Shown: positions 7,229 to 25,692 of the stretch, piece by piece
How the letters are laid out: every line of letters starts with the position of its first letter
Position numbering within the stretch: the first letter of the stretch is position 1
DNA from: a virus
DNA: 64,000 bases
IMG/VR virus record: IMGVR_UViG_3300042940_003205
Coordinates: 1-64,000 of that record
Strand: one strand, 5' to 3'
The notes under the pieces: model-generated
Database searches by the model: none
Seen by the model: the letters and a program-made list of their open reading frames with translations, nothing else
Told to the model about the DNA's origin: nothing
Translations under genes and position numbers: made by a program

Positions 7229-7229
7229 T

Positions 7230-7260
7230 AAAGGTATAACCCTCCGCTATTTAAAAATAT
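7230..7260 (+). promoter_or_regulatory. Putative phage late promoter AAAGG-N18-AAAAATAT
   Basis: Matches a motif recurring upstream of 6-8 genes in the window. Confidence 0.45.
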
Positions 7261-7291
7261 AGTATTAACAATTTATCAAGAGAGATAAAAT

Positions 7292-7768
7292 ATGCAAAAT
7301 TTAGAGTCACAGTTACATACACTTTTAGAAGATATTGCACCAGATGTTCACTCACACGAAGAGCAGGCAAAAATTATTGCTTTAGCTTCTGCAACTATTT
7401 CTAAAAAATTTACTGCAAGACGTTTTGCAAAAACTGAAGGTAGAGTTGTAGAATCACAAATGACAGATGCAATTTTAGTTGCAATGTCCACCTTATCTAC
7501 CTTTGATAGTGAAGATGATGAGATCTTTGATGCTAGAGGGCTTTCTCACTCACAATTAATCAGAAGAGTAGCAAATACAACTAAGCCAAGCTGGGGACAA
7601 ATGGATATTTTGAATCCTGATGTCATTGAAGATACATTCTCTTTTGAAGAAGAAGATGAGCCAGATTCTGAAACTAAGTTAGAAAATGCACAACAAACCA
7701 CAGAGGCATTTGACACACCTGGAAGAGGCAGACATCGTTCAGATTTTATTTCAGCTCCAATAAGATAA
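7292..7768 (+). CDS. Acidic hypothetical protein, possibly head-internal/scaffold-like
   Basis: 158-aa ORF, Asp/Glu-rich C-terminal half, RRFAK and RRVAN motifs. Confidence 0.55.
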   Translation: MQNLESQLHTLLEDIAPDVHSHEEQAKIIALASATISKKFTARRFAKTEGRVVESQMTDAILVAMSTLSTFDSEDDEIFDARGLSHSQLIRRVANTTKPSWGQMDILNPDVIEDTFSFEEEDEPDSETKLENAQQTTEAFDTPGRGRHRSDFISAPIR

Positions 7769-7769
7769 T

Positions 7770-8354
7770 ATGAAATACTTAAAATTAGCTCAAATGCCTC
7801 CGATGGATCCTATGATGGGAATGGGAATGGGAATGCCAGCTGCTCCTATGGCTATGCCTGCACCTGTTGAGCCTGCTTCTGCTCAAAAACAAATCAAAGT
7901 TCCTCTTGCTAATTTAGGTTTAATCTTAGCTGATGCTGAAATTGAAAAAAAATTATTAGAGCAACTTGAAGATGATGAACAAGGCATTGCTAATGATGTT
8001 TGGAATCAATATGGCGGAGAAGAAGATGGCGGAGTTGATCAATCCAAACGTGGTAAAAGAAAAGACTCAGAAGAAGCTTCAGAAGAAGAAATAAAAGCCA
8101 CTGATAAAACTAGATGGGAAAGATTACCTGTTGGTCAAAATTTATTAGATTTAGAAATATCTCTTGATGATTTTGCAAATGCCATTAAATTCTTATCTTT
8201 TGGATTTGCTAAAAACAAGGGTAAAGAACAAGGTGGAGCTGCCGGTGGTGGTGGAATGCCTGGTATGGCATCAAGAAAGCTTGATAATATGGTCAAATTA
8301 GCCCATAATTTGGATTTATTGGGTATGTATAGTGTAGCTGATCGTATATTGTAG
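7770..8354 (+). CDS. Met/Gly/Pro-rich acidic hypothetical protein, possibly head-internal
   Basis: MKYLKLAQ start, MGMGMGMP and GGGGMPGM low-complexity segments, C-terminal helix VKLAHNLDLLGMYSVADRIL. Confidence 0.55.
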   Translation: MKYLKLAQMPPMDPMMGMGMGMPAAPMAMPAPVEPASAQKQIKVPLANLGLILADAEIEKKLLEQLEDDEQGIANDVWNQYGGEEDGGVDQSKRGKRKDSEEASEEEIKATDKTRWERLPVGQNLLDLEISLDDFANAIKFLSFGFAKNKGKEQGGAAGGGGMPGMASRKLDNMVKLAHNLDLLGMYSVADRIL

Positions 8355-8378
8355 ATAATAGCTAAATTTGCTTGATTT

Positions 8379-8387
8379 TGGTATAAT
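8379..8387 (+). promoter_or_regulatory. Extended -10 sigma70-type promoter (TG-G-TATAAT) for gyrB-gyrA
   Basis: Perfect TGnTATAAT 65 bp upstream of the gyrB ATG; no good -35 at 17 bp spacing. Confidence 0.6.
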
Positions 8388-8418
8388 GCTGTGATAAATT
8401 AAATCACAGCATTTTTTT
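8385..8418 (+). terminator. Intrinsic terminator-like hairpin overlapping the gyrB promoter
   Basis: 11-bp stem aatgctgtgat/atcacagcatt, 7-nt loop, T7 run. Confidence 0.6.
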
Positions 8419-8452
8419 ATGCCTGTACTCGGAATGAAACGAAGGAAAGCAA

Positions 8453-10579
8453 ATGGCAAATCAATACAACGAAGACTCCATTCAGATTTTGGAGAGCCAA
8501 GAAGCAGTACGAACACGTCCTGCTATGTATATCGGTGATACTGGCAAAAAAGGACTTCACCACCTTGTTTGGGAAATTTTGGATAACTCTGTTGATGAGC
8601 ATATGGCTGGGCATTGTAGCAAAATTGATGTCATTGTTTCAAAAGACAACCGCACACTGACTGTAATTGATAATGGTCGTGGTATTCCTGTAGCAGTAAA
8701 GCAAGAAGATCTTAAAAAACGTTCTACTCTTGAGATTGTATTAACAGAATTACACGCTGGTGGTAAGTTTGGTGATGATGGTTCTGGATATGAAGCATCT
8801 GGTGGTCTTCACGGCGTTGGTGCTTCTTGTGTAAACTTTCTTTCAATAAATCTTGATGTTGAAGTTTATCGAGATAAAAAGAAATATCAATTATCTTTTG
8901 AGCGTGGTATTCCAGTTGCTCCTGTTAAAGAAATAGGTAATTCATCTTTAACCGGAACAAAAATTTCTTTTACCCCTGACTATAATATTTTTGGTCAATT
9001 TCCTGTGGAAGATGCTTTTCGTGAAGTTCTTGTAGATGATTTTGAAATTGATGAAGTATTTGCTGAATGTTCTGGTAAATGGCGTAAAGCTTTAATTAAC
9101 GGAGAAGTAAACGGTATTACTTTTTACGATATATTTAAGTCAACTAATATTGATGAGCAGCTTTTATATGTAATTTATAAAATTTGGAATAAGCGTTCTA
9201 ACGATAATATTCATTTTGATGAAGCTGTTATTATTCGACGTTTAAAAGAAACAGCTTATCTTAATGGTGGACTAAAAATTGTCTACAAGAATGAGCATAC
9301 TGGAACCAAAGAAGATTTTTACTACGAAGGTGGAATTGCAGATTACGTAAGCTATCTTGCATCTACTCGTTCAAATCCTTATCCATCAAAGCCATTTTAT
9401 TTTGAAAATAAGTCTGGAAAGATAAATGTCCAAGTTGCTTTTCAGTATTCAGAAGACGATGATGAAACAACCTATGCATATGCTAACAACATTAACACTG
9501 CTGACGGTGGTACTCATCTAAGTGGCTTCAAGACATCTATCACGAGAATTGTAAATCAATTTTCTCGATCCTCAGGTGTTATCAAGGAGAAAGAACCCAA
9601 TTTGACTGGTGAAGATATCCGTGAAGGTATTGTTGCTATCATCTCAGTTCGTCTTCCTCAGCCTCAATTTGAAGGCCAAACCAAGGGCAAACTTGGGTCA
9701 CCTGAAGTTGAAAGCGTTGTAAATAAACTTTTCTCCGAAGCACTTGTTGAATATTTTGAGAAGAACCCATCAATTTTTAAGATGATTGCTGAACGTGCTT
9801 TACGCTCTGCTCGTGCTAGGGCTGCAGCAAAGAAAGCATCTGAATCTATCAAGCGTCAAGGTTTTCTTGGTAAGTCAGGTTCTCTTCCAGGTAAATTGTC
9901 TGACTGTGATACTGAAGATGTATCTATTTCAGAATTATTCTTGGTTGAAGGTGATTCTGCTGCTGGATCTTCAAAGGGTGGTCGAAATCCTATCACTCAA
10001 GCTATTCTTCCTATTCGTGGAAAGATCATCAATCCAGAGAAAAATGAACTTGCTAAGCTTCTTGCAAATGAAGAAGTTTCTGCACTCATTTCAGCAATTG
10101 GAACTGGAATTCGTGATGATTTCAAGATTGAAGATTTGCGTTATGGCAAGGTTATCATTATGACTGATGCTGATGATGATGGTGCTCATATTGCTGCTCT
10201 TTTGATGACATTCTTCTATAGATTTATGCGTCCTCTGGTTTTGAAAGGTCATTTATATCTTGCGAAACCACCTCTCTACCGTGTGACTATAAAGAATGTT
10301 CACAACTATATTCACACTGAAGAAGAGCTCAATTCCTATCGTGCCAAGTATGGTGATAAAATAGATGTGACACGATTCAAGGGATTAGGCGAAATGGATG
10401 CTGATGAACTTGGACACACAACTATGGAAATTGGCACACGTCAAATAATCAAAATTGGTGTCGAAGATGCAGAAGAAGCTTCAAATATGCTCAGTGTTTT
10501 GATGGGTAATGAAGTAGGTCCACGTAAGGCTCATATTATTAAAAAGTCTTTTGAACGTAGTAAGGAAGTTGTAAACTAA
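8453..10579 (+). CDS. gyrB: DNA gyrase subunit B, with a ~70-aa insertion in the GHKL ATPase domain
   Basis: EAVRTRPAMYIG, EILDNSVDE, DNGRGIP, GGLHGVG, TOPRIM EGDSA / DADDDG, RFKGLGEM; AAGGA SD. Confidence 0.97.
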   Translation: MANQYNEDSIQILESQEAVRTRPAMYIGDTGKKGLHHLVWEILDNSVDEHMAGHCSKIDVIVSKDNRTLTVIDNGRGIPVAVKQEDLKKRSTLEIVLTELHAGGKFGDDGSGYEASGGLHGVGASCVNFLSINLDVEVYRDKKKYQLSFERGIPVAPVKEIGNSSLTGTKISFTPDYNIFGQFPVEDAFREVLVDDFEIDEVFAECSGKWRKALINGEVNGITFYDIFKSTNIDEQLLYVIYKIWNKRSNDNIHFDEAVIIRRLKETAYLNGGLKIVYKNEHTGTKEDFYYEGGIADYVSYLASTRSNPYPSKPFYFENKSGKINVQVAFQYSEDDDETTYAYANNINTADGGTHLSGFKTSITRIVNQFSRSSGVIKEKEPNLTGEDIREGIVAIISVRLPQPQFEGQTKGKLGSPEVESVVNKLFSEALVEYFEKNPSIFKMIAERALRSARARAAAKKASESIKRQGFLGKSGSLPGKLSDCDTEDVSISELFLVEGDSAAGSSKGGRNPITQAILPIRGKIINPEKNELAKLLANEEVSALISAIGTGIRDDFKIEDLRYGKVIIMTDADDDGAHIAALLMTFFYRFMRPLVLKGHLYLAKPPLYRVTIKNVHNYIHTEEELNSYRAKYGDKIDVTRFKGLGEMDADELGHTTMEIGTRQIIKIGVEDAEEASNMLSVLMGNEVGPRKAHIIKKSFERSKEVVN

Positions 10580-13566: not shown

Positions 13567-14388
13567 ATGAACAACGCAACAATTAAATCTTGGATTAATA
13601 GAGCATACGTTTTTGAAGAAAGCTATATAAACGCTTTTGTAGCATCTTCTTCTGGAGGAACCGGAGGCACTGGTGGAACTGGTGGCACCGGAGGTACAGG
13701 AGGCACTGGCGGAACAGGTGCTGGTTCAGGAACCACTGTATTGTACTTCTCTGTTCCAAATTCTTCTTCTTATCCTGGCACTGGATTTACTATTTTTGAT
13801 CTAAGCACATATGGCAATAACGGCTATCTATACAATGGCACCAATTATGTAAACAGCGGAAATGCTGATTATTTATTCTTTGACGGAACAAACAATTATG
13901 TTGGAATAAATACAACAGTAACCTCAAACACAAATGATGTAAACATAACAACCTGGGTAAATTCCTCAATAGTATCTCAATCTGGCCAAATGATTGTTTA
14001 TGTAGGTAGTGAACAAAACCTCAATGGATATGGTATAGCAATCAATAAAGAGTATGTAACATCTGGAAATGTTTACATCAGATACGGAAATGTGAGATGG
14101 TACAACTCTGGAATTGCATTATCTTCAAATACCTGGAACCATCTGTCTCTTAATATAAAGAGTGATACTTCCAATGATTTATATGTCGATGGTATCTTAA
14201 GATATTCTGGACCAATCTCTGCAATTTACACACCAACATTACATACAGAAATTGGAAGAAGTGATTTTACTACTTATGCTTACCCAAGATATTTGAATGG
14301 GAAAGTTTCTGAAGTTATCATTTCCAGTGGAATTTTAACTACAAGTCAAATTTTATCGCATTATAACTCAACTAAAAATAATTATTAA
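13567..14388 (+). CDS. LamG/concanavalin A-like lectin-domain virion protein with a (GGT)7 linker
   Basis: DLSTYGNNG, FDGTNNYV, WNHL, LYVDG, YLNGKVSEVII...SQILSHYN LamG pattern. Confidence 0.8.
   Translation: MNNATIKSWINRAYVFEESYINAFVASSSGGTGGTGGTGGTGGTGGTGGTGAGSGTTVLYFSVPNSSSYPGTGFTIFDLSTYGNNGYLYNGTNYVNSGNADYLFFDGTNNYVGINTTVTSNTNDVNITTWVNSSIVSQSGQMIVYVGSEQNLNGYGIAINKEYVTSGNVYIRYGNVRWYNSGIALSSNTWNHLSLNIKSDTSNDLYVDGILRYSGPISAIYTPTLHTEIGRSDFTTYAYPRYLNGKVSEVIISSGILTTSQILSHYNSTKNNY
13654..13716 (+). repeat. Seven tandem Gly-Gly-Thr codon triplets with diversified synonymous codons
   Basis: gga gga acc / gga ggc act / ggt gga act / ggt ggc acc / gga ggt aca / gga ggc act / ggc gga aca. Confidence 0.95.
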
Positions 14389-14719: not shown

Positions 14720-15670
14720 ATGGCTTTTCCAGGCATTCTTACTAGAGGCGAATTTTCAACAGGTCTAAACACAAAAAGTATTTGCGTAAATGGCAATTAT
14801 CTTATTGTTGAAGAGTGCAATATTAATCAAGTTCAAGAGCATAACTTAAATAACTATATTCAGGGTGGTCCTGCTTATGCAATATATAATCTTGGAGCAA
14901 AAAAATACGAAGGTTCAATTTCTTTTCCATTAAGAGTTGATCAAGACGGAAATCTTGAATCTGCTGCTATAACTCTGCTACAGTATGCAGCGAAACCTAT
15001 GTCAGCTTTAAGAATTGATACACATCATTTGCTTTCAATGAAAACAACTACTGTTTTAGATCCAGGTACAGACAATAATAAAAATCTTTCTTTAGATTCT
15101 GTAGTAATTAGTAGTTTGACATTATCTTGCAGTGAAAGCAACAAGGTGATGATTAGAATTGATTTAACTGGTATGGTTGATGAAGAAAATGAATCTGAAT
15201 TCAATTTTAGTACTGATTATATCTTGGGAAGAGCCTTAACTTGGGCTGATTGTAATGCTAGTAGAAAAGAATCTTCTATGAGAACTACATCTAGTATTGA
15301 AGTGCGAATTGAAAACGAATTAGTGACACCAGTATTCTTGATGCCTTACTTGTCTTATCCTGGTGCTGGAGTAACAGAATCAAAAGATCAAATAGAGCTA
15401 ATAGGTGTTCAATCTACTAAATGGAGTGGAAATGTTGCAGAAGTTATAAGAAATGGAGCAGATTTACATACATTTATTCATGGTGGATTGATGCATGATT
15501 CTAATTTGGTTTTACAATTTGGACCAGCTACTGCAACATTCCCAAACCCAGTTTTCAAAATTGGACAAACTCCTTTGACCTCTCAAATAATAAGGAGAAC
15601 CACTGAATGGGCTGGAATTAATAAACCTGATGCTTCTATGAACGACAATGGATTATTCACTTTTGTTTAA
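14720..15670 (+). CDS. Tail-tube-like protein, paralogue of 15760-16782
   Basis: Beta-rich; aligns by eye with the downstream ORF (YLIVE/YIVE, QGGP/QGSP, LIGVQ/HIGVN). Confidence 0.5.
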   Translation: MAFPGILTRGEFSTGLNTKSICVNGNYLIVEECNINQVQEHNLNNYIQGGPAYAIYNLGAKKYEGSISFPLRVDQDGNLESAAITLLQYAAKPMSALRIDTHHLLSMKTTTVLDPGTDNNKNLSLDSVVISSLTLSCSESNKVMIRIDLTGMVDEENESEFNFSTDYILGRALTWADCNASRKESSMRTTSSIEVRIENELVTPVFLMPYLSYPGAGVTESKDQIELIGVQSTKWSGNVAEVIRNGADLHTFIHGGLMHDSNLVLQFGPATATFPNPVFKIGQTPLTSQIIRRTTEWAGINKPDASMNDNGLFTFV

Positions 15671-15701
15671 AAAGGTAAGCATCAATAAAATAAAGAATAT
15701 T
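15671..15701 (+). promoter_or_regulatory. Putative late promoter AAAGG-N17-AAGAATATT
   Basis: Best consensus copy, upstream of the putative major tail protein. Confidence 0.5.
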
Positions 15702-15759
15702 TTGAATAACCTAAAAAAACAAAAGAAGTCAATAAATCTTTTGAAAGTGAGTTGATAAA

Positions 15760-16782
15760 ATGCCTATTAATAATGATATCCTTGGTATTTACAAATCAGT
15801 GTTTATTACAGTTGCTGGTGGAACTGCTAGATCATACATTGTTGAAAGTGCCAGCAGAAGCGTTACAATTGATGCTTCACCTAAAGTATTGATGCAAGGA
15901 AGTCCTAAAACTAGAATTATGGACATCGGTGGAGTAACAGAGACCATCTCCATCCAAGCTCCTATTTTGATTGGTGGTGGTGCTTCAGCTGATGGAAGAG
16001 CTATCGCAACACAAAAAATCAATGAAATTCTAGACCCTACTAATGCAACATTACCTATCCTTAAGTCAGCTTCATTCAGTATTAATGAAGGTGGCGGATC
16101 TGTTTCTCTTACCCTTGAGAGTGATGGTGACTCAGGCGTTGGTACTTCAGCATTCTTTGTTGTAAACTCCAACACACCACACCCATCATTGAATCCTGTT
16201 GGTACTGGTGGTTCTGGAACTACTGCTTTTGGTCCTACAAGAGTTGCTCGTTTCTACGACTTTAGAGCTCAAATCGGTGATAGAAAGTTCTTTATCCAAG
16301 AAGCAAGCGTTGATGTCAATGTTGAAACACAAAAGACATACTTCATCAACCCTTACGACTTTGTAGATCCAGGTGCTGGCTACCAATTAACTGGTAATGG
16401 TGGTACTTCATTGCCTTCAGTTCTTTCAGGTAATGGTATTTCCTACAAGTATGGTACTCAATTCCCACATATCGGTGTTAATGGTTTAACAATTTCCGGT
16501 AAGGGTAAAGGCGCTGTTGTTGTTGGTTCAACATATGCTTCTGAAACAACTGCTGGTGTTACTACACAAGAAGCTGGTAAAACTGTTCTTGCAAGTGCAG
16601 GCAGTGTAACATTTGCTCTTGAAATTGCACAACAAAATGGTTTCAACTATCTCGCAGCTCCATCTTGGGCTAGCTTGATTCCTGGTATTGGTTTATCAAA
16701 AGCAATCATCAATGCTACCAACTTCTCTGTAAGTACTGGTATCTTGACTGTTGACTTTGACTTTATGTGCTACGTTGTCTAA
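15760..16782 (+). CDS. Putative major tail tube protein
   Basis: 340 aa, Gly/Ser/Thr-rich beta protein; codon choices suggesting high expression (GGT, ACT, TTC, AAC); own promoter motif. Confidence 0.55.
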   Translation: MPINNDILGIYKSVFITVAGGTARSYIVESASRSVTIDASPKVLMQGSPKTRIMDIGGVTETISIQAPILIGGGASADGRAIATQKINEILDPTNATLPILKSASFSINEGGGSVSLTLESDGDSGVGTSAFFVVNSNTPHPSLNPVGTGGSGTTAFGPTRVARFYDFRAQIGDRKFFIQEASVDVNVETQKTYFINPYDFVDPGAGYQLTGNGGTSLPSVLSGNGISYKYGTQFPHIGVNGLTISGKGKGAVVVGSTYASETTAGVTTQEAGKTVLASAGSVTFALEIAQQNGFNYLAAPSWASLIPGIGLSKAIINATNFSVSTGILTVDFDFMCYVV

Positions 16783-16787
16783 TTAGA

Positions 16788-17279
16788 TTAGTCTTCGTCA
16801 TACATAAAATTTTCGTAATCCCAGTCTTCATCTAAAGGCTCCATATTATCCCAAACATCAAAAACAATTTTCAAATTGGTTTGGGATAATATGGACAAGA
16901 TGATTCCATCACACAAAGACATAATTAAATAAAAATTATTCAAATTTTTATCCAAAAATTTCACTGATGTATAGATTACATCACCAACTTTATTCTCAAT
17001 CTCAACACTCTCGACATCAGATTTGTATATTTCTAAAAGTTTAATAAATGCCTGATGTATGGTTTGTATATGAGAATTTTTATGATAATCTTTAGCTACA
17101 AAAGTTAACATTCCAGATTCATAAGAATTAATTTCACAAGCTGATTTTTTGTCCCCATCACTCAATACTACAAAAGATCTGCCTTCGGGGTTTACAACAA
17201 CACTTTCAATTAAGATAGGTATGAGCTCATAACGATTTCCGTTATTGATCGAATGCCTATCTATTTTTTTGTCTTTCAT
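16788..17279 (-). CDS. Degenerate bifunctional-nuclease (DUF151/BFN-like) protein
   Basis: FVVL...EINSYES...TIHQ...VESVEIE...VIYTSV...SLCDGIILS layout matches DUF151; start moved to the ATG overlapping the merC-like stop (ATGA). Confidence 0.65.
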   Translation of the reverse strand: MKDKKIDRHSINNGNRYELIPILIESVVVNPEGRSFVVLSDGDKKSACEINSYESGMLTFVAKDYHKNSHIQTIHQAFIKLLEIYKSDVESVEIENKVGDVIYTSVKFLDKNLNNFYLIMSLCDGIILSILSQTNLKIVFDVWDNMEPLDEDWDYENFMYDED

Positions 17280-17668
17280 TTCTTTATTCCACAAGTTTTA
17301 CAATGTTTGCACAATTTGTCATTTATCAAAGATGACAAAGCCATCAACAGTCCACCAAACACCATAAATATATTGAATAAATCAAATTGAATTCCATTAT
17401 GATGGTTATGATGATGCATCAATCTGCCAATTACAAAAATAAACAATCCTAATGCTAAAACAGCTACAGCTTTATTAGATTTGTGTTGTCTATATCCAAA
17501 ACATACATTTGTTATATTAAATAATAATGAAAGCCCCAATAATGCGAATTCAAAAGTTTCATTAATAAATAGATAAACACCAGTAGTTGGTATTAATATA
17601 ATAAGCAAAGGCACTATAGTACAATGAACGGCACAAATTATAGATGCCCACAATCCAACTTTCTTCAT
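17276..17668 (-). CDS. MerC-domain membrane protein (4 TM) with a His-rich loop
   Basis: GLWASIICAVHC, GYRQHK, four hydrophobic helices, HHHNHHN, C-terminal CKHCKTC. Confidence 0.8.
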   Translation of the reverse strand: MKKVGLWASIICAVHCTIVPLLIILIPTTGVYLFINETFEFALLGLSLLFNITNVCFGYRQHKSNKAVAVLALGLFIFVIGRLMHHHNHHNGIQFDLFNIFMVFGGLLMALSSLINDKLCKHCKTCGIKK

Positions 17669-19356
17669 TTCATCTTCTCTTTTGCTATTTCATGTACTAA
17701 TAAAGACTTCTCTTTAATTGTATCTTTTGCTGACTCTAAAAGGCTTGATATTAATTCTATATTTTGACTCTTACCATCTTCTTCAATGGAGTTCTTTAGG
17801 TCTTTCAAATCATTCATATCTTCGTTATTTAATACATTTGTTCTAAGTAATTCTTCAATTTGAATTTCACAATCATAAAGAAGATCGTGCATATTTGTAA
17901 TCTTTCTAAAACGCTCATCCTCTTCTTTGTGTTTTTGTGCATCATCAATAATTTTTGATATCTCTTCACTTGATAACGATGCTTGGCCAGTAATCTCAAT
18001 ATCTTTGTTGACTCCAGTATCCAGATCTTGAGCCTTGACTGAAAGTATACCATTTGCATCAATTTCAAATGCCACTTCAATTTTGGGTAATCCTCTAGAT
18101 TTCTCTTCAATACCACTAAGCTTAAATTCTCCAAGACACAAATTATCAACTGTTTTTGGTCTTTCTCCCTGATATATCTTTACATCAACAGAAGATTGAT
18201 TGTCATATGCAGTTGTAAAGATTTCCTTAACAACTGCTGGAACTTGGGTATTTCTTGAAACTAATATACTCATAATTCCACCTTGAGTCTCTACACCTAA
18301 TGAAAGAGGGCAGACATCTAAAAGAAACACTTCTCTGCTTGATTTTCCTGTCAAAACCGATGCTTGGATTGCTGCCCCTATCGATACGGCTTCATCTGGA
18401 TTAATTGACTTATTTGGCTTTTTTCCGAACTTTTCTTCAATGACTCTTTCAATCATTGGAATTCTAGTACTTCCACCAACAAAAACAACTTCATCAATTT
18501 TGTCAGACTTTACATTTGCGTCTCTTAATGCATCATTTACACAAGCTAAAGTTTTATCTATGTAAGTCTTAATTGACGTTTCGAATTCTTCACGAGTAAT
18601 TTTTGTTAGTTCTTTTCCAACCAAAACATTTGCTACTGTCATATGAGAAAGCATTTTTTTGGCTTTCTCTGATATGTTTCTAAGTTCAGCAGGGCTCAAT
18701 GTATTAGTAATTTTATTACAAATGATTTCACTTATAGCAGAATCAAAGTCTACACCGCCAAGAGATGTATTTCCTGAGGTAGATTGGACGTGAAAATCAA
18801 CTCCATCCATTAGTTTAAGCAAGGTTACATCAAATGTTCCACCACCAAGATCATAAACAAGAATAGTGGCATCATTCTTCTTATCTAATCCATATGCCAA
18901 AGATGCTGCTGTTGGTTCATTGATAATTCGTAAGACTTTCAACCCAGCTAATTCTCCAGCTGTTTTTGTTGATTGTCTTTGGTCATTGTTAAAATAAGCT
19001 GGAACAGTAATTACAGCTTCAGTAACTTCAGATCCTAAATGTCTTTCAGCACAATTTTTTAAATATTTTAATATGTAAGATGAAATTTCTTCTGGACTGT
19101 AAGATTTATCTTCAATGACAAATCTCTTATTAGTTCCCATATGTCTTTTAACAACACGTATAGTATGAGAAAAGGGCAAATGCTGTTCCATATCAACAGC
19201 ATATTGCCCTATATATACTTCATCTCCAAATGATACAACACTTGGAGTAATTCTTTCGCCTAAATCGTTTGGAATAACTTCTGCTTGATCATTCTCATTT
19301 ACATAAGAAACAACACTAAAAGTAGACCCTAAATCAATTCCAATAGCATGACTCAT
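17665..19356 (-). CDS. dnaK: Hsp70 / DnaK chaperone (compact, 563 aa)
   Basis: GIDLGST, TVPAYF, RIINEPTAA, DLGGGTFDV, VGGSTRIP, NPDEAV, linker LLDVCPLSLG, IDANGIL. Confidence 0.95.
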   Translation of the reverse strand: MSHAIGIDLGSTFSVVSYVNENDQAEVIPNDLGERITPSVVSFGDEVYIGQYAVDMEQHLPFSHTIRVVKRHMGTNKRFVIEDKSYSPEEISSYILKYLKNCAERHLGSEVTEAVITVPAYFNNDQRQSTKTAGELAGLKVLRIINEPTAASLAYGLDKKNDATILVYDLGGGTFDVTLLKLMDGVDFHVQSTSGNTSLGGVDFDSAISEIICNKITNTLSPAELRNISEKAKKMLSHMTVANVLVGKELTKITREEFETSIKTYIDKTLACVNDALRDANVKSDKIDEVVFVGGSTRIPMIERVIEEKFGKKPNKSINPDEAVSIGAAIQASVLTGKSSREVFLLDVCPLSLGVETQGGIMSILVSRNTQVPAVVKEIFTTAYDNQSSVDVKIYQGERPKTVDNLCLGEFKLSGIEEKSRGLPKIEVAFEIDANGILSVKAQDLDTGVNKDIEITGQASLSSEEISKIIDDAQKHKEEDERFRKITNMHDLLYDCEIQIEELLRTNVLNNEDMNDLKDLKNSIEEDGKSQNIELISSLLESAKDTIKEKSLLVHEIAKEKMK

Positions 19357-19369
19357 AATAATAATTGTA
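19357..19369 (-). promoter_or_regulatory. -10 box TACAAT 7 nt upstream of the dnaK ATG (leaderless start)
   Basis: TACAAT-TATTATT-ATG, no SD. Confidence 0.5.
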
Positions 19370-19371
19370 CA

Positions 19372-19725
19372 TTATTCTGAGTCTTCTGGTAAAACCGTGC
19401 CTCCTGGAACATATCCTTCCATTAATTCTTTCAATGAATCTTTATTATCTAACTTTTTCTTAAAGTCCAATGTTTCTTTTTTTGTTATTGGTCCGTTAGG
19501 AGATAATTTACTCTCATCTTTTGGCAAATTAGATCTGTAATCGTGAGCCATAGACATAAGTTGAGTAACTGCAAATGTGTCTTTACATTTTGGGCATCTC
19601 ATAATGGCATGCACTTCTACTTCTGATTTAGGAAGCCACCCAAGATGAGAGGCTTTAGTAAATTGTGCTTTGCAATTACGATTAAGACAACATTTAGGTT
19701 TGCCGACGATAGTTTGATGAAACAT
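19372..19725 (-). CDS. Zn-ribbon hypothetical protein
   Basis: CCLNRNC and CPKC pairs; start reassigned to ATG 19725 behind a GGAGGT SD. Confidence 0.65.
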   Translation of the reverse strand: MFHQTIVGKPKCCLNRNCKAQFTKASHLGWLPKSEVEVHAIMRCPKCKDTFAVTQLMSMAHDYRSNLPKDESKLSPNGPITKKETLDFKKKLDNKDSLKELMEGYVPGGTVLPEDSE

Positions 19726-19755
19726 AGCACACCTCCAATGCGCAATAGGCACTTT

Positions 19756-19786
19756 ATTATTCCTTGCAAAACATATCTCAACTTTT
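19756..19786 (-). promoter_or_regulatory. Putative late promoter variant AAAAG-N17-AGGAATAAT
   Basis: One mismatch to the recurring motif. Confidence 0.3.
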
Positions 19787-19834
19787 ATTAAGAAATCTTA
19801 ATAGGATACAAACTTGCTTATGGTGTATACTATT

Positions 19835-19876
19835 ATAGTCCACTGGCGGATAAATTGATGCCAGTGGACTATTTTT
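19835..19876 (+). promoter_or_regulatory. 13-bp perfect hairpin with GATAAATT loop, leader of the micro-ORF
   Basis: atagtccactggc / gccagtggactat, 12-nt loop, short T run; TATACT at 19826-19831 just upstream. Confidence 0.65.
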
Positions 19877-19890
19877 ATGTAAGGAGGTAA

Positions 19891-19968
19891 ATGATTATGA
19901 AGATTTTTGAACAACTAGAAGAAATGATGAATCAAGTAATTTCAGCTTTATTCAGAGTAGAATTGTAA
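19891..19968 (+). CDS. Unannotated 25-aa peptide MIMKIFEQLEEMMNQVISALFRVEL
   Basis: Perfect AAGGAGGT SD at 19881-19888 (alternative ATG 19897 gives canonical spacing), upstream -10, downstream hairpin. Confidence 0.6.
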   Translation: MIMKIFEQLEEMMNQVISALFRVEL

Positions 19969-19976
19969 GGCAACTT

Positions 19977-20002
19977 ATAATCTACAATGGCGTAGATTAT
20001 TT
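19977..20002. terminator. Weak hairpin between the convergent micro-ORF and helicase
   Basis: 9-bp stem ataatctac/gtagattat, 6-nt loop, overlaps the helicase stop. Confidence 0.45.
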
Positions 20003-21763
20003 CAACTCATACATCTTCCAAGCACGTTCATTCTTATATACTTTCTTTCTCATATTTACGTGAGATCTCAAATTCTTATGACTTGAAGCGAAATCAATAA
20101 TAACAGCTTCAGGTTTTCCGTTTTTAATAGAGTCCTCAACATTTTTGCCAACACATCTAAGTACTCTACCAACTTGCTGGTATGTAGTAACTGGTGATGA
20201 ATTAGTACCAGCAAGAATTAAACCAGCAATCCTTGGAGCATCAACACCAACATTAGCCCATTGAGTTGCTATCAATATTATTTCATTATTCTCAACAGAA
20301 TTAAGCATTCTTCGGCGATAATTCTTTTCCTCATCAGTAGGATCAACTTCGCCTTTGTCACCACCAGGAACAAACACAGCATCTTCAATCATTCCCTCAA
20401 GAATATTGCCGTGTTCCATTCTTTCAACAAGAATAAGAGTTGGTATACCTTTTGCTTTCATTCCTTCAGCAAACTGTTTGATTCTGAAATTTCTTTCCCA
20501 GCAGTTAATAATATTCAGATTGTAAACTTCGTGATAAGTTTGACCAGGTTCTACAGTGTTGATATTCACTACAAAAATCTTAGGTGGAACTAGGAAACCA
20601 CGCTCGACAAGATCGCTAGCACTAACTTCACAGACTTTTCCACCTAGTGTTCCTTCAATTCTGATTTCTTGATTGTCAGTACGGAAAGGAGTGGCACTTA
20701 AACCTAGCCTATAATAAGCGTTTTTTGCCTGATTTCCAATTTCTTCAGTCACAACAGCAGCCAAGTGTGCTTCATCAATAATCAAAGCATTACAGCATTG
20801 AATTACGTTTCTTACTTGAGCTTTCTGAAATAAAGTATCTTGCCTATTATCCCAAGCTGTTTGTGCCTTCCTATATGCTGCCAATTCAGTCTTAATCAAT
20901 AAGCCGATTTCACGTTCATATTTTTTCCGTAATTTATCTGCATCTTTTGATTGATTTTCTTCAGCTGTTTCAACTTGGACATATAAGTCAGAAAGTTTAC
21001 CTGATGCAATTTGACGGGCTTTTTTGTATTTAGTGGTGGCTTCATCTAATTCTTTTTGAAGAAGTCCAGTAGGTTTGGAGCCCTCACCTGTATCTTCAAC
21101 TATTTTGTTATTACTTTCCATATATTTCTTATCAAAAGCAATAAGAGCAGTTTGGTAGGTAATGACATTGATACCTTCCATATTGATATCGCAGAGACCA
21201 CCTCCAGCAATACCAACTTTTACAGGTTCACCATTTATTTTTAAATATTTCTCAAATTCTTTTTGAGTTTGCTTAAGTAATTCAATAGCTGGAACAACAA
21301 ATACCACTGGCTTGACCTTAAGTTTGTGGAAAATATAACAAGAAGTCATAGTCTTTCCAGCACCAGTAGCAAGAGCAAGCATCCCACGTTGATTTTTAAG
21401 CGCTAAATCTCCAGAAATTGTTTGGTAATCTCTAAGATCTTTACCCATAAAATCACAGGCAATATTGTAATCTCTAACAGGCTTTTCTCTTTTGTCTGTA
21501 AATTTGTATTGCACATTCAATTCATCAAATAAACGAGCAACACGCATAGTTAAACCAGTGGGAAAAGATTGATTTCTTTTTATATAAAGAGAAATTTTTC
21601 CATCCCACTGACCTGTCTTGTATTTAGCAGACCATTCAGAATCAGGAACTTTATATGACAATTCGTTTCTTAAAGCTTCTTGATAAGGAAAAGGTAATTT
21701 TCCCATAGGATCATCAAGATTTACGATAATGCTTTTGTCATTGTAAACTTCAACTTCTACCAT
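19997..21763 (-). CDS. Superfamily 2 (UvsW/Rad25-like) DNA helicase with a coiled-coil insertion
   Basis: Q-motif LRDYQ, LATGAGKT, DEAH, GLSATPFR, QQVGRVLR; N-terminal WDGKISL typical of UvsW-like phage helicases. Confidence 0.88.
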   Translation of the reverse strand: MVEVEVYNDKSIIVNLDDPMGKLPFPYQEALRNELSYKVPDSEWSAKYKTGQWDGKISLYIKRNQSFPTGLTMRVARLFDELNVQYKFTDKREKPVRDYNIACDFMGKDLRDYQTISGDLALKNQRGMLALATGAGKTMTSCYIFHKLKVKPVVFVVPAIELLKQTQKEFEKYLKINGEPVKVGIAGGGLCDINMEGINVITYQTALIAFDKKYMESNNKIVEDTGEGSKPTGLLQKELDEATTKYKKARQIASGKLSDLYVQVETAEENQSKDADKLRKKYEREIGLLIKTELAAYRKAQTAWDNRQDTLFQKAQVRNVIQCCNALIIDEAHLAAVVTEEIGNQAKNAYYRLGLSATPFRTDNQEIRIEGTLGGKVCEVSASDLVERGFLVPPKIFVVNINTVEPGQTYHEVYNLNIINCWERNFRIKQFAEGMKAKGIPTLILVERMEHGNILEGMIEDAVFVPGGDKGEVDPTDEEKNYRRRMLNSVENNEIILIATQWANVGVDAPRIAGLILAGTNSSPVTTYQQVGRVLRCVGKNVEDSIKNGKPEAVIIDFASSHKNLRSHVNMRKKVYKNERAWKMYELK

Positions 21764-21778
21764 TCAGCAAGTATACCA
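21764..21778 (-). promoter_or_regulatory. Extended -10 TG-G-TATACT 6 nt upstream of the helicase ATG (leaderless)
   Basis: TGGTATACT-TGCTGA-ATG, no SD, immediately downstream of a terminator. Confidence 0.6.
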
Positions 21779-21780
21779 TT

Positions 21781-21822
21781 AAAACAAAACAACCATTTTG
21801 TTGGGATCAACAAAATGGTTGT
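21781..21822 (-). terminator. Intrinsic terminator after the dnaJ transcription unit
   Basis: 15-bp perfect stem acaaccattttgttg/caacaaaatggttgt, 4-nt loop, TTTGTTTT on the minus strand. Confidence 0.75.
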
Positions 21823-21839
21823 CTCTTGATAAAACATCC

Positions 21840-22274
21840 TTAACGATGATTCATTGCGTTGAATTTATTGACAACAATTTCAATTTGTTTTGGCTTCTTG
21901 CCTACAAATGTTTCCAGTGTAGAAAGAACAAGCATATGAATCTTGTCAACATCTTCTTCGGATAATTCAATACCCTTCTGAACACAACCTAAACGAATAA
22001 ATCTCACAAACTGATCAACAGCATCATCCTGTGAAAATTCTCCATCTTGGATCTGCTTCAATCCTTCAATCCAAATATCTAAAATGCCATCAGCTTTATC
22101 GCCTAGCTTACTACGTAGAACAAGCTTCACAACTTCAAGGGTTTGTAAAGCTGCAGCACCTTCAGATTTAGACTTTGCCAAGAAGAAGAAGACTACACTA
22201 CCAAGGATGAAACAAATTACATAAACAATAATTTCATTCTGTGTTGATTTGAGAAAATTATTTACTAATTCCAT
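21840..22274 (-). CDS. Single-TM membrane protein, LL-H-holin-like
   Basis: N-terminal TM IIVYVICFILGSVVFFFLA, helical cytoplasmic domain with KGIELSEEDVDKI; AAGGA SD before ATG 22274. Confidence 0.4.
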   Translation of the reverse strand: MELVNNFLKSTQNEIIVYVICFILGSVVFFFLAKSKSEGAAALQTLEVVKLVLRSKLGDKADGILDIWIEGLKQIQDGEFSQDDAVDQFVRFIRLGCVQKGIELSEEDVDKIHMLVLSTLETFVGKKPKQIEIVVNKFNAMNHR

Positions 22275-22276
22275 AA

Positions 22277-22495
22277 TTAACAATCCTTAGCTATAACTGA
22301 ATCATCTTCATCAGATGCATTAGGGTCTAAATCCATATCTGTTGTCAATGGAATAACCAATTCATCTTTGATTTGTGCGGTGACAGTTTCATCTTTCTTT
22401 TCATCTGCCCAAACAAGATTATCTGCAATTACTTCTTCACCTTCTGCATTAGTGAACTTTTCGATCTTGCCTGTAGCTCTCTTTACCATACTCAT
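22277..22495 (-). CDS. Small acidic hypothetical protein
   Basis: 72 aa, ATGA-coupled to the dnaJ stop. Confidence 0.6.
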
Positions 22496-23475
22496 AACAT
22501 TTGTCTCCTTTTCCTAGATTCGACATATGATTTTAAAAATTGTGATTCTTCATCAGAAATTTCTTTAGGAATTTTATACATAATTTTGAGGTGTAAGTCA
22601 GAATATGCATCATTTGATGTTGGAATACCTTTGTTTTTAACTATATGCACGTAACCATTCTTCAAGCTGGTATTGAACTTGAAATTTAACTTAGTACCAT
22701 TTACATGAGAGTATTTAAATTCTGGATCAATCAAAGCCATAATAGGATCTATTTCAAATTCGTGAATTAAATTTAAATTAGGATCAATTTCAAATTTATC
22801 TCTTGCTTTAGTAATTACTTCCACGATTAATGGGCCTGGAGCTTGATGTATATCTCCGTGATTTCCTCTGCCTTGTATCATTGAAGATCTGTAAACGTGA
22901 CCTTTGTTTATTGTCAAATCAAAGTTTTCATACATTTTTACAAAACCAGATCCAGAACAATAATTACAAAATGAATCAAATTTTTCACCACGCCCATAAC
23001 AATCACCGCAAGGACCAGCATATTCTCGGATGTGCATAAACCCCAAGTTACGTACTATATAATGTTCACCAGAACCCATACAGGTCATACAAATATTTTT
23101 ATTACCACTTCCACCAATTCCTGAACAGCCCCCACAAGGTACAAGACGTTCATAATTTAAGTTTTTAACTACATTTTTATAAACTTCTTCCAATTCTAAT
23201 TCAATCTTTAATGTTATCGGTGTGTTAAGATTTTTTCGGAATGGGTTATGTGCTGTGTTTCTAAAAGGATTTGCAGGAGGTTCAAAATGATGCTGAGGAG
23301 GTGGAGGATTTAAAATATCTTCATAAGCTTGAGATATTTCTTTGAATTTTTCTTCTGCTCCAATTTCTTTGTTCACATCAGGATGATATTGCTTTGCTAA
23401 CTTCCTGTATGCTTTTTTTGCATCATCTACTGAAGCATTGTGAAGCAAACCTAGAATATCATATGGATTCGGCAT
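22492..23475 (-). CDS. dnaJ: DnaJ (class A-like) co-chaperone lacking the G/F region
   Basis: J-domain with HPD, four CxxCxGxG repeats, C-terminal substrate-binding domain. Confidence 0.92.
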
Positions 23476-23487
23476 AAAATCATTATA
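23476..23487 (-). promoter_or_regulatory. -10 box TATAAT 6 nt upstream of the dnaJ ATG (leaderless)
   Basis: TATAAT-GATTTT-ATG, no SD; overlaps the upstream stop codon. Confidence 0.5.
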
Positions 23488-24157
23488 CTAATTTGGAAAG
23501 CATATTAGTAATTTTATTAGATGGACAAACAGCATTCTCACCAACGCCTATATCAGCGTGTTGTCCAGTTACACCCATAATAGTGCCGTAAACAAGATTG
23601 TCTGTACCTATAACCATACCGCCTGATGAACCTTCCAAGATATCAGCATCAACGAAAATAATGTCATTCCAAGCTGGCATATTTACGTCATTTATACTTT
23701 GGTGCAGATTAGATACTCTTCCAACTGTTGCTGTGTCGTGAAATCCTTCTGGAGATCCTATAACTGCAACAATGTCTCCCACTTCTACTGTGTCACTGTT
23801 GGCAAATTGTAAAGCAGGAATATTTGATGGAATTCTTTCTGCTCTTACTGCTCCAGAATCAATTGTAGGATCAGAAGTTAGAAAAGTGGCTGGAATAAAA
23901 TTTTTATTATCAAAAGTAATAAGAATTTCTGTCAAAGTTTCATCAGTTGGAACTACGTGTCCAGCGGTAATAATAATATTATTTCCAATGTGAAATCCAC
24001 TTCCAGACCAGTTTTTCTTTCCAGATCTCACATAAATGGAACAAGAAGCTTGAAGCCCCAATTGTATTGTTTTTTTAATTGGGTCTTCAAGCTTTTCTGT
24101 GCTCTGGCTAGTTTTAATCAAACTATCCAAATAATTAACATCTAATTTAAAATTCAT
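23483..24157 (-). CDS. Trypsin-like (S1, HtrA-type without PDZ) serine protease
   Basis: SGSGF, ITAGHVV (His), DSGAV (Asp), EGSSGG (Ser). Confidence 0.88.
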
Positions 24158-24612
24158 TGTATTACTTTATACAAAATCTCATTTTCTTCTAAAGTTCCAA
24201 ATCTTCTGCTATCATCTGAATTATCCAAATTATCTCCAATAAGATAATAATGGTTTTTTGGAACTTTTAATTCTAGCGTATAAGCATCATCAATATTTTT
24301 TGTTTGCACTATTGAACGATATGAATTATCAATAATAAGCTTGTAATATCCTTCTTTCTTCATTACATAATAGTAATATTCTTCTGGAGTATAAAGTATT
24401 CTTTTAACGATCAAGGATCTGTCATCACTCAAAGCAACTACTACATCGCTTTTTTTGAAATATTTAGTCTTTTTAGCTAACAAAATTTGCCCACTTTTGT
24501 AAGTAGGATACATCGATTGTCCAATAACTACAACTAACTTATAAGGCTGAAAATAAGCTAAAAGTAGCAATATACAACCAATGGCCAAAGAAACAATTAA
24601 TCTCTTTTTCAT
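24154..24612 (-). CDS. Signal peptidase I (S26)
   Basis: N-terminal TM, GQSMYPT (Ser), IVKRI (Lys), GDNLDNSDDSRRFG; GAGGTG SD. Confidence 0.9.
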   Translation of the reverse strand: MKKRLIVSLAIGCILLLLAYFQPYKLVVVIGQSMYPTYKSGQILLAKKTKYFKKSDVVVALSDDRSLIVKRILYTPEEYYYYVMKKEGYYKLIIDNSYRSIVQTKNIDDAYTLELKVPKNHYYLIGDNLDNSDDSRRFGTLEENEILYKVIQ

Positions 24613-24674
24613 GCTTCACCTCTTGTTGTAAAAGGAGCTGAAGACATTTCTTTTTTTTAGCTTTTTGCTCGTAG

Positions 24675-25637
24675 TTAAGATTTTTTAACAGTGATGTTTG
24701 ACCAATCAATATTTGCAAGTTTAGGAACACCAGGCCCCCAATTTTGTTCTTCTCCAGGTTGAACTTGATAATTTTGTAAACTTGAAATATTTCTCAATGC
24801 AACCATCATATCTTCTTGACAAAATTGGTTTCCAAATTCTGGTAGAAGATTCTGATTTTTCAATGCAGCTTTTATCAATGCACAAATACCAGCAACAAAT
24901 GGAGCTGATTGACTTGTGCCTGACATTTTACAATAGTTATTATTCAAATGAGTTGAATAAATATTAGTGCCTGGAGCAACAATGTCTACTGTAAAATCCC
25001 TTGAAGTGAAAGTGGCTAAATTTCCACTTTCATCTAATGCAGCAACAGCAATAACTTCATCGTATCTTGCTGGGTAATTTACTGCGTGTGAGTCGTTTCC
25101 GGCAGCTGCTATAACTACAATTCCTTTGGAAACTGCTTCTTTAATCAAATCGTGAATGAATGCTGGTGGTTCAGATGGTGCGCCTAAAGACATATTAATA
25201 ATGTCAACATCTAAATCAATTGCTTTTCTCAAACCTGCAGCAATTGTGTCATAACTTCCACCGCCATTATTGTCGAGAACTCTAATAGCATAGCATTTTG
25301 CTTTCGGAGCAACACCAACTACGCCAAAATCATTATCAGAACCAGCGATAATTCCAGCAACGTGTACTCCGTGACCACTACCTTGGTCGTTTACGCTTGC
25401 TTCAGATGTACAGTTGACAGCTTCATCAGCCTTCCAAGCTTCTACTAAATCAGGGTGTTCTGAAAATCCAGTATCAAGAATTGCAACTTTGATACCTTCA
25501 CCTTGCTTTGAAACTGCCCAGACCTCTTGAATATTTGCTAAGGCCATACCCCAGTTTTGAGTTTGAGACAATGCTGCAAAAGGAACTGGTGTAACCTTTA
25601 AATCTTCTTCAGGAATAAATTGAATCTTATCTTGCAT
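24675..25637 (-). CDS. Subtilisin-family (S8) protease, intracellular ISP-like
   Basis: LDTG, GHGVHVAG, AAGN, SGTSQSAP; no signal peptide or I9 propeptide; start reassigned to ATG 25637 behind GAGGTG. Confidence 0.93.
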   Translation of the reverse strand: MQDKIQFIPEEDLKVTPVPFAALSQTQNWGMALANIQEVWAVSKQGEGIKVAILDTGFSEHPDLVEAWKADEAVNCTSEASVNDQGSGHGVHVAGIIAGSDNDFGVVGVAPKAKCYAIRVLDNNGGGSYDTIAAGLRKAIDLDVDIINMSLGAPSEPPAFIHDLIKEAVSKGIVVIAAAGNDSHAVNYPARYDEVIAVAALDESGNLATFTSRDFTVDIVAPGTNIYSTHLNNNYCKMSGTSQSAPFVAGICALIKAALKNQNLLPEFGNQFCQEDMMVALRNISSLQNYQVQPGEEQNWGPGVPKLANIDWSNITVKKS

Positions 25638-25660
25638 TTTTTTCACCTCGATACAAGTAT

Positions 25661-25692
25661 ATTATTCTTTATATATTTTTCCTTATTCCTTT
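25661..25692 (-). promoter_or_regulatory. Putative late promoter AAAGG-N18-AAGAATAAT
   Basis: Consensus copy upstream of the protease trio. Confidence 0.5.

Follow-up and report, generated by a model that had tools for sequence, protein, structure and literature searches.

Positions 16788 to 25692 of the DNA stretch analysed here, which is termed the window and comprises the first 64 kb of the 103-kb IMG/VR virus record IMGVR_UViG_3300042940_003205 (G000; CheckV completeness 29%), encode three serine proteases of the families S8, S26 and S1, followed by DnaJ, two small proteins and, beyond a transcription terminator and a helicase gene, by DnaK and a MerC-like membrane protein. We think that the region could represent a late-type "protein handling" set, the products of which would be co-expressed, mechanistically separate helpers in different compartments and not one machine, and we give this reading an about even chance. 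In such a set, the S8 enzyme would be a cytoplasmic subtilisin similar to the intracellular subtilisin proteases (ISPs), with a short extension containing an Ile-Pro motif that probably keeps the enzyme self-inhibited until it is processed. S26, with its active site toward the periplasm, would trim the signal peptides of a handful of phage-encoded exported proteins, and S1 would be a cytoplasmic PDZ-less HtrA-type protease that is made with a short flexible N-terminal pro-segment. DnaJ, which lacks the Gly/Phe-rich (G/F) region, most probably hands phage proteins over to the DnaK of the phage, and the latter works without a phage GrpE. Both small conserved proteins, of which one is holin-like with a membrane anchor, would belong to the same first transcription unit, the helicase with its own extended -10 element would form the second, and DnaK together with the MerC-like protein the third. 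The features of the region are as follows, with lengths in amino acids (aa):

25664..25692, minus strand: promoter-like element AAAGG-N18-AAGAAT (motif scan), immediately behind the 2738-aa gene's stop, 18 nt ahead of the S8 gene
24675..25646, minus strand: S8 subtilisin-family protease, 323 aa (Pfam PF00082, E 3.8e-58)
24154..24612, minus strand: S26 type I signal peptidase, 152 aa (Pfam PF10502, E 1.3e-17)
23483..24157, minus strand: S1 HtrA/DegP-like protease domain, 224 aa (Pfam Trypsin_2, E 8.6e-19)
22492..23475, minus strand: DnaJ, 327 aa (Pfam PF00226, PF00684, PF01556)
22277..22495, minus strand: u72, an acidic 72-aa protein conserved in all relatives, without a Pfam or PHROG match
21840..22283, minus strand: u147, 147 aa, with a single N-terminal transmembrane (TM) helix predicted from hydropathy and a conserved C-terminal domain, without a Pfam match
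21786..21825, minus strand: intrinsic terminator with an 18-bp stem and a T run (terminator scan)
21768..21775, minus strand: extended -10-like box TATACTTG within TGGTATACT, just upstream of the helicase gene
19997..21763, minus strand: UvsW-like SF2 DNA helicase, 588 aa (Pfam ResIII, DEAD, UvsW_N, Helicase_C)
19372..19752, minus strand: u126, a Cys-rich Zn-ribbon-like protein of 126 aa as judged from its sequence, kept in most relatives, without a family match
17665..19356, minus strand: DnaK/Hsp70, 563 aa (Pfam PF00012, E 9e-163)
17276..17668, minus strand: MerC-like 4-TM membrane protein (Pfam PF03203, E 5.4e-20; hydropathy)
16788..17294, minus strand: u168, 168 aa with an acidic C-terminus, the last gene of the minus-strand block, conserved in relatives, without a family match

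The S8, S26, S1, dnaJ, single-TM and dnaK genes that an initial annotation had named from the DNA letters are all found by open reading frames (ORFs) and Pfam where it had placed them on the minus strand, which carries every gene of the ORF list from 16788 to the window end. The catalytic residues that it had described as intact in the three proteases are invariant across the orthologue alignments. As family matches, PDB relatives, invariant residues and AlphaFold 2 (AF2) folds agree, this observation is correct; the helicase, the Zn-ribbon-like ORF, the acidic ORF, the MerC-like protein and the 168-aa ORF, which the same span also holds, had not been mentioned. Relatives were compared as whole contigs, above all G001 (358 kb, 89% complete) and G002 (379 kb, 100% complete).

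In a PDB search, the S8 protease is about 40% identical to subtilisin Carlsberg and Savinase, and the residues D58, H92, N184 and S245, which align with the motifs of these two enzymes, are invariant in 12 orthologues. The AlphaFold model (predicted local distance difference test, pLDDT, 82) shows a subtilisin fold. The protein has no N-terminal hydrophobic segment and no signal peptide, and Pfam covers the catalytic domain only, from aa 49. An N-terminal extension of 27 aa precedes the start of the mature domain and contains the motif IQF(I/L)P with invariant F10 and P12; aa 8-20 are modelled as short strands (pLDDT ~83). These features are reminiscent of the ISPs from Bacillus clausii and Planococcus (PDB 2x8j, 2wv7, 6f9m), which likewise possess the D/H/S triad with an oxyanion Asn and a conserved Ile-Pro motif in a short N-terminal extension, and which also lack a signal peptide and an I9 prodomain; ISP precursors moreover give the longest structural alignments to the S8 model. 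In ISPs, the pro-peptide carries a LIPY/F motif, which binds over the active site and is inhibitory (PMC6220982). The S8 extension appears to resemble this inhibitory pro-peptide, but the match is partial, the motif being F-I-P-E/D instead of L-I-P-Y/F and the extension being ~27 aa long instead of ~18-20 aa, and a search of the N-terminal 60 aa against PDB gave no ISP match. Further differences are an extra C-terminal tail of ~60 aa, a sequence that is nearer to secreted subtilisins than to ISPs, and the encoding by a phage in an operon with two other proteases.

In S26, the residues S33, M34, P36, K70, R71, G126-D127-N128, S132 and D134-S135-R136 are invariant in the orthologue alignment and include a GDNxxxSxDSR box, and its closest matches in PDB are short signal peptidase I structures, signal peptidase IB among them. 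A hydrophobic segment is located at aa 1-31 with KKR ahead of it and the catalytic Ser just beyond it, and the enzyme is predicted to be anchored N-in with its catalytic domain outside the cytoplasm, which is the standard topology. It shares the single N-terminal anchor, the Ser/Lys dyad and the SM-x-PT, KR and GDN..S.DSR boxes with short type I signal peptidases of the Gram-positive type (PDB 4nv4, 4wvh, 4me8). At 152 aa it is among the smallest of them, it is phage-encoded, and, unlike them, it adjoins proteins with a non-hydrophobic N-terminal leader or tag in three phage lineages. Several other proteins of G001 and G002 carry classical signal peptides with AXA sites, and S26 thus has plausible phage substrates, which are not the tail proteins. 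The proposal of the initial annotation that the gene set processes membrane or exported phage proteins is plausible for this enzyme only.

The nearest PDB relatives of S1 are DegP/HtrA protease domains (E 1e-13 for DegP), and DegP is also the best fold match of the AF2 model (pLDDT 87, TMq 0.79). H67, D100 and S178 are invariant across 22 sequences. No PDZ domain was matched by Pfam, no signal peptide was found, and the protein ends 20 aa after the protease domain. By sequence, S1 thus resembles an HtrA protease domain and is not a canonical HtrA: it has the chymotrypsin fold and the H-D-S triad in a GxSGG context in common with HtrA, DegP and DegQ (PDB 3otp, 8f0a, 3stj), but neither their PDZ domains nor their signal peptide, and it possesses its own N-terminal pro-segment ending in [ASG]-Q, a flexible leader that terminates with LIKTSQ. 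Because it has no signal peptide, S1 is predicted to be cytoplasmic. The same is predicted for S8, DnaJ and DnaK, so that, with S26 facing outward, the products are expected in different compartments.

In DnaJ, the J domain (PF00226, E 2.2e-18) contains the HPD motif at aa 31-33. Sequence and orthologue alignment show a Pro-rich linker in place of the Gly/Phe-rich region, four CxxC pairs are visible although PF00684 reaches 30.9 bits against a cut-off of 32.7, and PF01556 scores above its cut-off. DnaK comprises the nucleotide-binding domain, the substrate-binding domain and part of the lid, and its aa 1-485 align with Geobacillus DnaK 2v7y (E 1.6e-136). GrpE (PF01025) is absent from G000, from the 89%-complete G001 and from the complete G002 in searches with working positive controls, and a host GrpE could serve instead. 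A GroEL-type chaperonin is encoded far from the cluster (G001 214976-216589, G002 290577-292217), and G001, but not G000 or G002, encodes a cell-like ClpP (206392-206925); the phage's means of folding and degradation are therefore not restricted to the "island" that the initial annotation had described. In addition to the DnaK of the type found in this clade, a second DnaK with a much higher Pfam score is present in G018 (333783-335567, E 4e-236) and in G027 (254567-256276, E 2e-220), which suggests separate acquisitions.

The genes for S8, S26, S1, DnaJ, u72 and u147 are predicted to form one operon that extends from an AWAGG-N17/18-RRGAAT element to the terminator. S26 and S1 overlap by 4 bp, DnaJ overlaps with u72 and u72 with u147, and the gap between S1 and DnaJ measures 7 bp. 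A motif scan with AWAGG-N16-19-RRGAAT yielded five copies in the 103 kb, where 2.5 are expected, and four of the five lie 18-62 nt upstream of gene starts, namely before S8, before the genes at 13567(+) and 15760(+), and before a 1450-aa giant gene (42235-46587, minus strand). The view of the initial annotation that the protease trio stands behind a promoter motif common to virion genes was borne out in that this element precedes both S8 and the 1450-aa giant gene. The element or a close variant is also found before S8 in diverged relatives, down to 30-50% protein identity. The terminator 3' of u147 is likewise kept in relatives, with stem sequences that differ between the lineages and compensated pairing. 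Directly after it follow a TGnTATA(A/C)T box and the helicase start, in a position that is conserved in relatives. An extended -10 of the form TGnTATA(A/C)T is also present at the gyrase B gene, in both cases near a hairpin and a few bases from the start codon (window 8368-8452; helicase 21764-21839), and it probably represents a second promoter class that is distinct from AWAGG-N17/18-RRGAAT. The box TATACTTG had been considered as a shared promoter, but its two copies in the window are no more than chance would give, and the genes behind them are S8 and the helicase and not virion genes. From these elements, at least three units can be deduced, one from S8 to u147, one with the helicase, and one with u126, DnaK, the MerC-like protein and u168. 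A single contiguous island is therefore not supported, as terminator and helicase separate DnaJ from DnaK.

Of the 80 viral loci that were anchored on DnaJ, 12 show the full order giant gene, S8, S26, S1, DnaJ, u72, u147, UvsW, u126 and DnaK, and tblastn found neither S8 nor S26 within 10 kb in the other 68. Five of these 68 hold a generic, mostly exported trypsin-like ORF in searches with hidden Markov models (HMMs), and as the two that adjoin DnaJ are generic enzymes of the exported or lipoprotein type, a general DnaJ-S1 pair in huge phages was dismissed. The locus set was extended with S26, S1 and head protein anchors, and families were searched over whole records. All close and mid-distance relatives have the block, and it is complete in G000, G001, G002, G017 (479 kb, with terminal repeats), G026 and G027. 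G018 and G006 retain the S8-S1-DnaJ core, with S26 located 95 and 177 kb away, respectively; the distance from the core to DnaK is 41 kb in G006. The sister group G019-G022, the head protein of which is ~60% identical, has neither S26 nor DnaK, and its genes for S8-like and trypsin-like proteins and for DnaJ are either lacking or widely separated; three other complete DnaJ-bearing huge phages contain no S8 and no S26. The core thus consists of S8, S1 and DnaJ, while S26 and DnaK are separable, as shown by their distance in G006 and G018. The initial annotation had regarded a scattering of the genes in related phages as a sign against a module, and it was found for S26 and DnaK, which lie at distances of tens to hundreds of kb in complete genomes of relatives, but not for the core, which stays together. 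The arrangement itself has been maintained in deeply diverged relatives with as little as 30-50% amino-acid identity, and the block marks a family-level clade of phages with genomes of 300-480 kb. Between the stop of the 2738-aa gene and the S8 start there are 44 bp in every relative. Synteny as a sign of functional coupling was nevertheless discarded, since ~90 kb around the cluster are collinear in G000, G001 and G002 and adjacency is therefore not specific evidence.

The source is an abundant, uncultured and widespread freshwater jumbo-phage group and not cellular DNA, which the initial annotation had held open. This identity follows from the Mu-like portal, the major head protein (phrog_2522, E 5e-68) and the GH108 endolysin in relatives, and from a Mu gp36-like protein that is encoded in the record itself; the relatives also encode Pol III alpha, DnaB, RecA and RecJ. 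Members of the head protein family are found on at least 157 IMG/VR viral contigs of up to 488 kb, and the S1 protein has 540 near-identical metagenome relatives. In G001 (40446-41300, minus strand) and G002 (139986-140840, plus strand), the 284-aa major head proteins show 90% identity, whereas most of the proteins that the two have in common are at 30-55%. Pfam Terminase_6C and Phage_sheath_1 had no match in G000-G002, and a megablast search of 50,697 phage records with the region as query found none either. PHROG scans of 25 neighbouring and distal proteins returned almost no matches, and annotation therefore leaned on Pfam and on the relatives. The giant genes next to the region had been called virion genes, for which the basis is the tail-fibre and virion-protein domain matches in PHROG of the 2738-aa protein only.

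The components belong to known families, and single chaperones or proteases have already been reported in large phages. S8 proteases occur in many Bacillus phages, and DnaK is seen in published huge-phage and Lak-phage records. A huge-phage survey does not mention chaperones or proteases. DnaK together with DnaJ has been reported in aquatic jumbo "moraphages" (PMC12619734), and phage-encoded Hsp70 and Hsp40 in aquatic jumbo phages are thus what the present clade shares with the moraphages, Lak phages and other huge phages. Going by the descriptions, the present lineage would differ from the moraphages in its Mu-like portal, Pol III alpha, a genome of up to ~480 kb, a DnaJ without G/F region and the lack of GrpE; subtilisin is not mentioned in the moraphage paper, nor does it describe a signal peptidase or an operon of proteases with DnaJ (PMC12619734). 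The literature on phage signal peptidase plus subtilisin, or on this gene set, gave nothing, in line with the initial annotation, which knew of no described system of this kind. What is new is that an ISP-like subtilase, an HtrA-like protease and DnaJ are joined in a deeply conserved, presumably late operon, which often also includes a signal peptidase and has a GrpE-less phage DnaK near it. Some huge phages hence carry much of the proteostasis toolkit, that is Hsp70, Hsp40, GroEL and three proteases.

Several points weigh against the view that these genes encode separate helpers. The late timing is read from the shared promoter-like motif only, and the ISP-like inhibitory motif of S8 is matched in part, with F-I-P-E against L-I-P-Y/F. 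The adjacency of S8, S1 and DnaJ, which is partly translationally coupled and maintained across ~30-50% identity, would also fit a true functional partnership. The reading gives no reason for a signal peptidase of the phage's own, and the leader motif of S1 as well as the missing recognisable prohead protease point to a more specific role.

This leader motif concerns many proteins. [KR][IVT][AS]Q was counted 11, 24 and 26 times in three proteomes, compared with 3.3, 9.9 and 12.4 times in shuffles, and lies above every shuffle; within the first 50 aa it is found in 11 proteins of G001 against 1.6 and in 12 of G002 against 2.1. In many cases it ends a ~40-aa helical-hairpin leader, L..IA..LD..G...EAD.I....[KR][IV][AS]Q, on otherwise unrelated proteins, of which there are ~25 in G001 (L104-L121, e.g. 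143701-151650) and ~12 in G002 (L085-L103). This leader family has no Pfam or PHROG match; examples from G002 are located at 61991-62521, 120465-120926 and 151406-151837, and shorter MxWY[KR]xAQ tags are also present. The GH108 endolysin of G002 (15307-16392, minus strand, L085) consists of the leader, a weakly hydrophobic stretch, a Pro/Ala/Lys linker and the catalytic domain, which suggests a regulated or targeted activation of this lysin. S1 carries a [KR]-x-[ASG]-Q site at aa 15-18, for which the orthologues of all lineages examined show KTSQ, RIAQ, KLGQ, REAQ and RLAQ in register, and in the wider S1 subfamily [AS]-Q closely precedes the protease domain in 10 of 12 representatives. In two other lineages (L141 6652-8420, L142 6742-8456; L174, G006 329001-346000, 1772-8884), the S26 gene directly follows genes for leader- or tag-bearing proteins, in L141 and L142 two genes after a GH108 endolysin. 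S8 or S26 as general leader peptidase is unlikely, because leader- or tag-bearing proteins occur in huge phages without S8, and because the predicted outward topology of S26 makes it unlikely that this enzyme cuts non-hydrophobic leaders.

Leader enrichment, the site in S1 and the lack of a canonical prohead protease would fit S1 as a self-processed leader peptidase. It could be postulated, although we regard it as unlikely, that S1, possibly with S8, is a pro-protein convertase or head-maturation protease that cuts phi-[KR]-[IVT]-[AS]-Q leaders from a dozen or more proteins and from itself, and that replaces an undetected assemblin-fold or ClpP-like prohead protease. S77, S78, Mu-like_Pro and S49 enzymes were not found (the S77 search being without a positive control), ClpP is confined to G001, and the 612-aa and 208-aa genes upstream of the head protein, which were considered as hidden proteases, contain no invariant Ser or His and are scaffold-like and decoration-like. 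However, diverged assemblin-fold proteases can escape Pfam, and a 1426-aa gene beside the portal was outside the search. The N-terminus of S1 moreover gave no match to the full leader HMM, and this helical hairpin is also found in internal tandem copies in other huge phages without S8, mostly also without the S1 subfamily and S26, so that the motif may mark where a structural domain ends instead of being cleaved. The neighbours of the cluster are tail-like genes, and in G002 ~85 kb separate it from the portal and head genes. HtrA enzymes usually prefer aliphatic P1 residues. The motif in the present clade ends in Gln with putative cleavage, in contrast to the Glu after which the T4 and SPN3US prohead proteases cut, and H200 of S1 was rejected as a Gln-binding His, since it is invariant in the clade but not conserved in the wider subfamily. 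The giants with prohead proteases (T4 gp21; SPN3US gp245; PMC5694885, PMC10052503) are similar to this clade in that N-terminal propeptides ending in a short consensus are found on many virion proteins and that the protease itself is processed, which is putative here. Their enzymes have the assemblin fold and are encoded in the head module, whereas the candidate here has a chymotrypsin or subtilisin fold and is encoded outside of it. In a more specific form, S1, perhaps together with the ISP-like S8 or activated by it, would be a new chymotrypsin-fold leader peptidase that takes N-terminal targeting or pro-sequences off a dozen or more proteins including the endolysin and itself, taking the place of the assemblin-fold or ClpP-like enzyme, with DnaJ as co-translated partner for client delivery; this seems rather improbable to us. 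If true, it would explain how these phages process many of their own proteins and would add a non-assemblin protease to the routes of virion maturation.

The initial annotation itself had proposed a dedicated module in which DnaJ and DnaK fold, and S8, S26 and S1 mature, the tail proteins of 1000 to more than 3000 aa that are encoded directly upstream. The constant 44-bp distance of S8 from the 2738-aa gene and the promoter-like element that it shares with a giant gene speak for this, and very large beta-rich proteins are plausible Hsp70 clients. But none of the giant proteins has a signal peptide, while S26 acts outside the cytoplasm and S8 and S1 are themselves without signal peptides, and a module for tail maturation is therefore not supported. 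Six of eight giant proteins (834-3468 aa) also lack [KR][IVT][AS]Q, the single site of the 3468-aa protein not being kept in G001, and together with the unlinked S26 and DnaK in G006 and G018, the chaperones encoded elsewhere and the collinearity of the whole region, this makes the proposal very unlikely. The genes could also form a cassette for lysis or egress, in which u147 times the permeabilisation, S26 processes Sec-exported lysis proteins and S8 and S1 reach the envelope after holin action. The holin-like topology of u147, its weak ESM Atlas link to Phage_holin_6_1, the late-type promoter element and the position of S26 near an endolysin in the unrelated L141/L142 lineage are in agreement with it, but the GH108 endolysin of G002 is ~200 kb away, neither spanin nor endolysin is present within the cluster, u147 matches no Pfam or PHROG holin and DnaJ has no known role in lysis, so that we see only a very slim chance for it. 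Finally, DnaJ and DnaK could rewire host proteostasis or defence sensing, with the proteases degrading host proteins or defence factors. Counter-defence or recruitment of host DnaK has been proposed for phage chaperones in the moraphage paper (PMC12619734), and a phage J-protein that acts on host DnaK/sigma32 as well as a DnaJ-dependent defence system are cited therein (PMC12619734). Such a takeover is highly improbable for the present operon, which has the element of putative virion genes and not the extended -10 type found before helicase and gyrase; besides, the phage supplies its own DnaK, and the data identify no host target. The reading as co-expressed, separate helpers is thus the one that we prefer.

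Hydrophobic segments are found in S26, u147 and the MerC-like protein only. The highly acidic u72, which always lies between DnaJ and u147, has the invariant termini MSM(V/I)KRATGKIE and IAK(D/R)C. For u147, the ESM Atlas look-alikes at 0.91 are viral clusters, and in one of them 26% of the members carry Phage_holin_6_1 (PF09682); the protein can therefore be called holin-like only weakly. The MerC-like protein possesses CxxxC in TM1, CxxCxxC at its C-terminus and a loop rich in His (HHHNHH), and its start overlaps the DnaK stop; being translationally coupled to DnaK, it could be a metal transporter or a metal-dependent partner.

The UvsW-like helicase has 1028 aa in G002 (219827-222913) compared with 588 aa in the window, which indicates a large insertion. 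A 1074-aa conserved protein of G002 (114897-118121) contains a LAGLIDADG homing-endonuclease or intein-like segment. Prepilin-type proteins that begin with MKKAFTLIELLVVIAIIAILAAILFPVF are encoded in G001 (142190-143086, minus strand) and in G002 (292303-293178 and 293256-294017, plus strand); we take this N-terminus to be like that of the DUF1559 pseudopilins typical of Planctomycetota and Verrucomicrobiota, and it is presumably a hint at the host.

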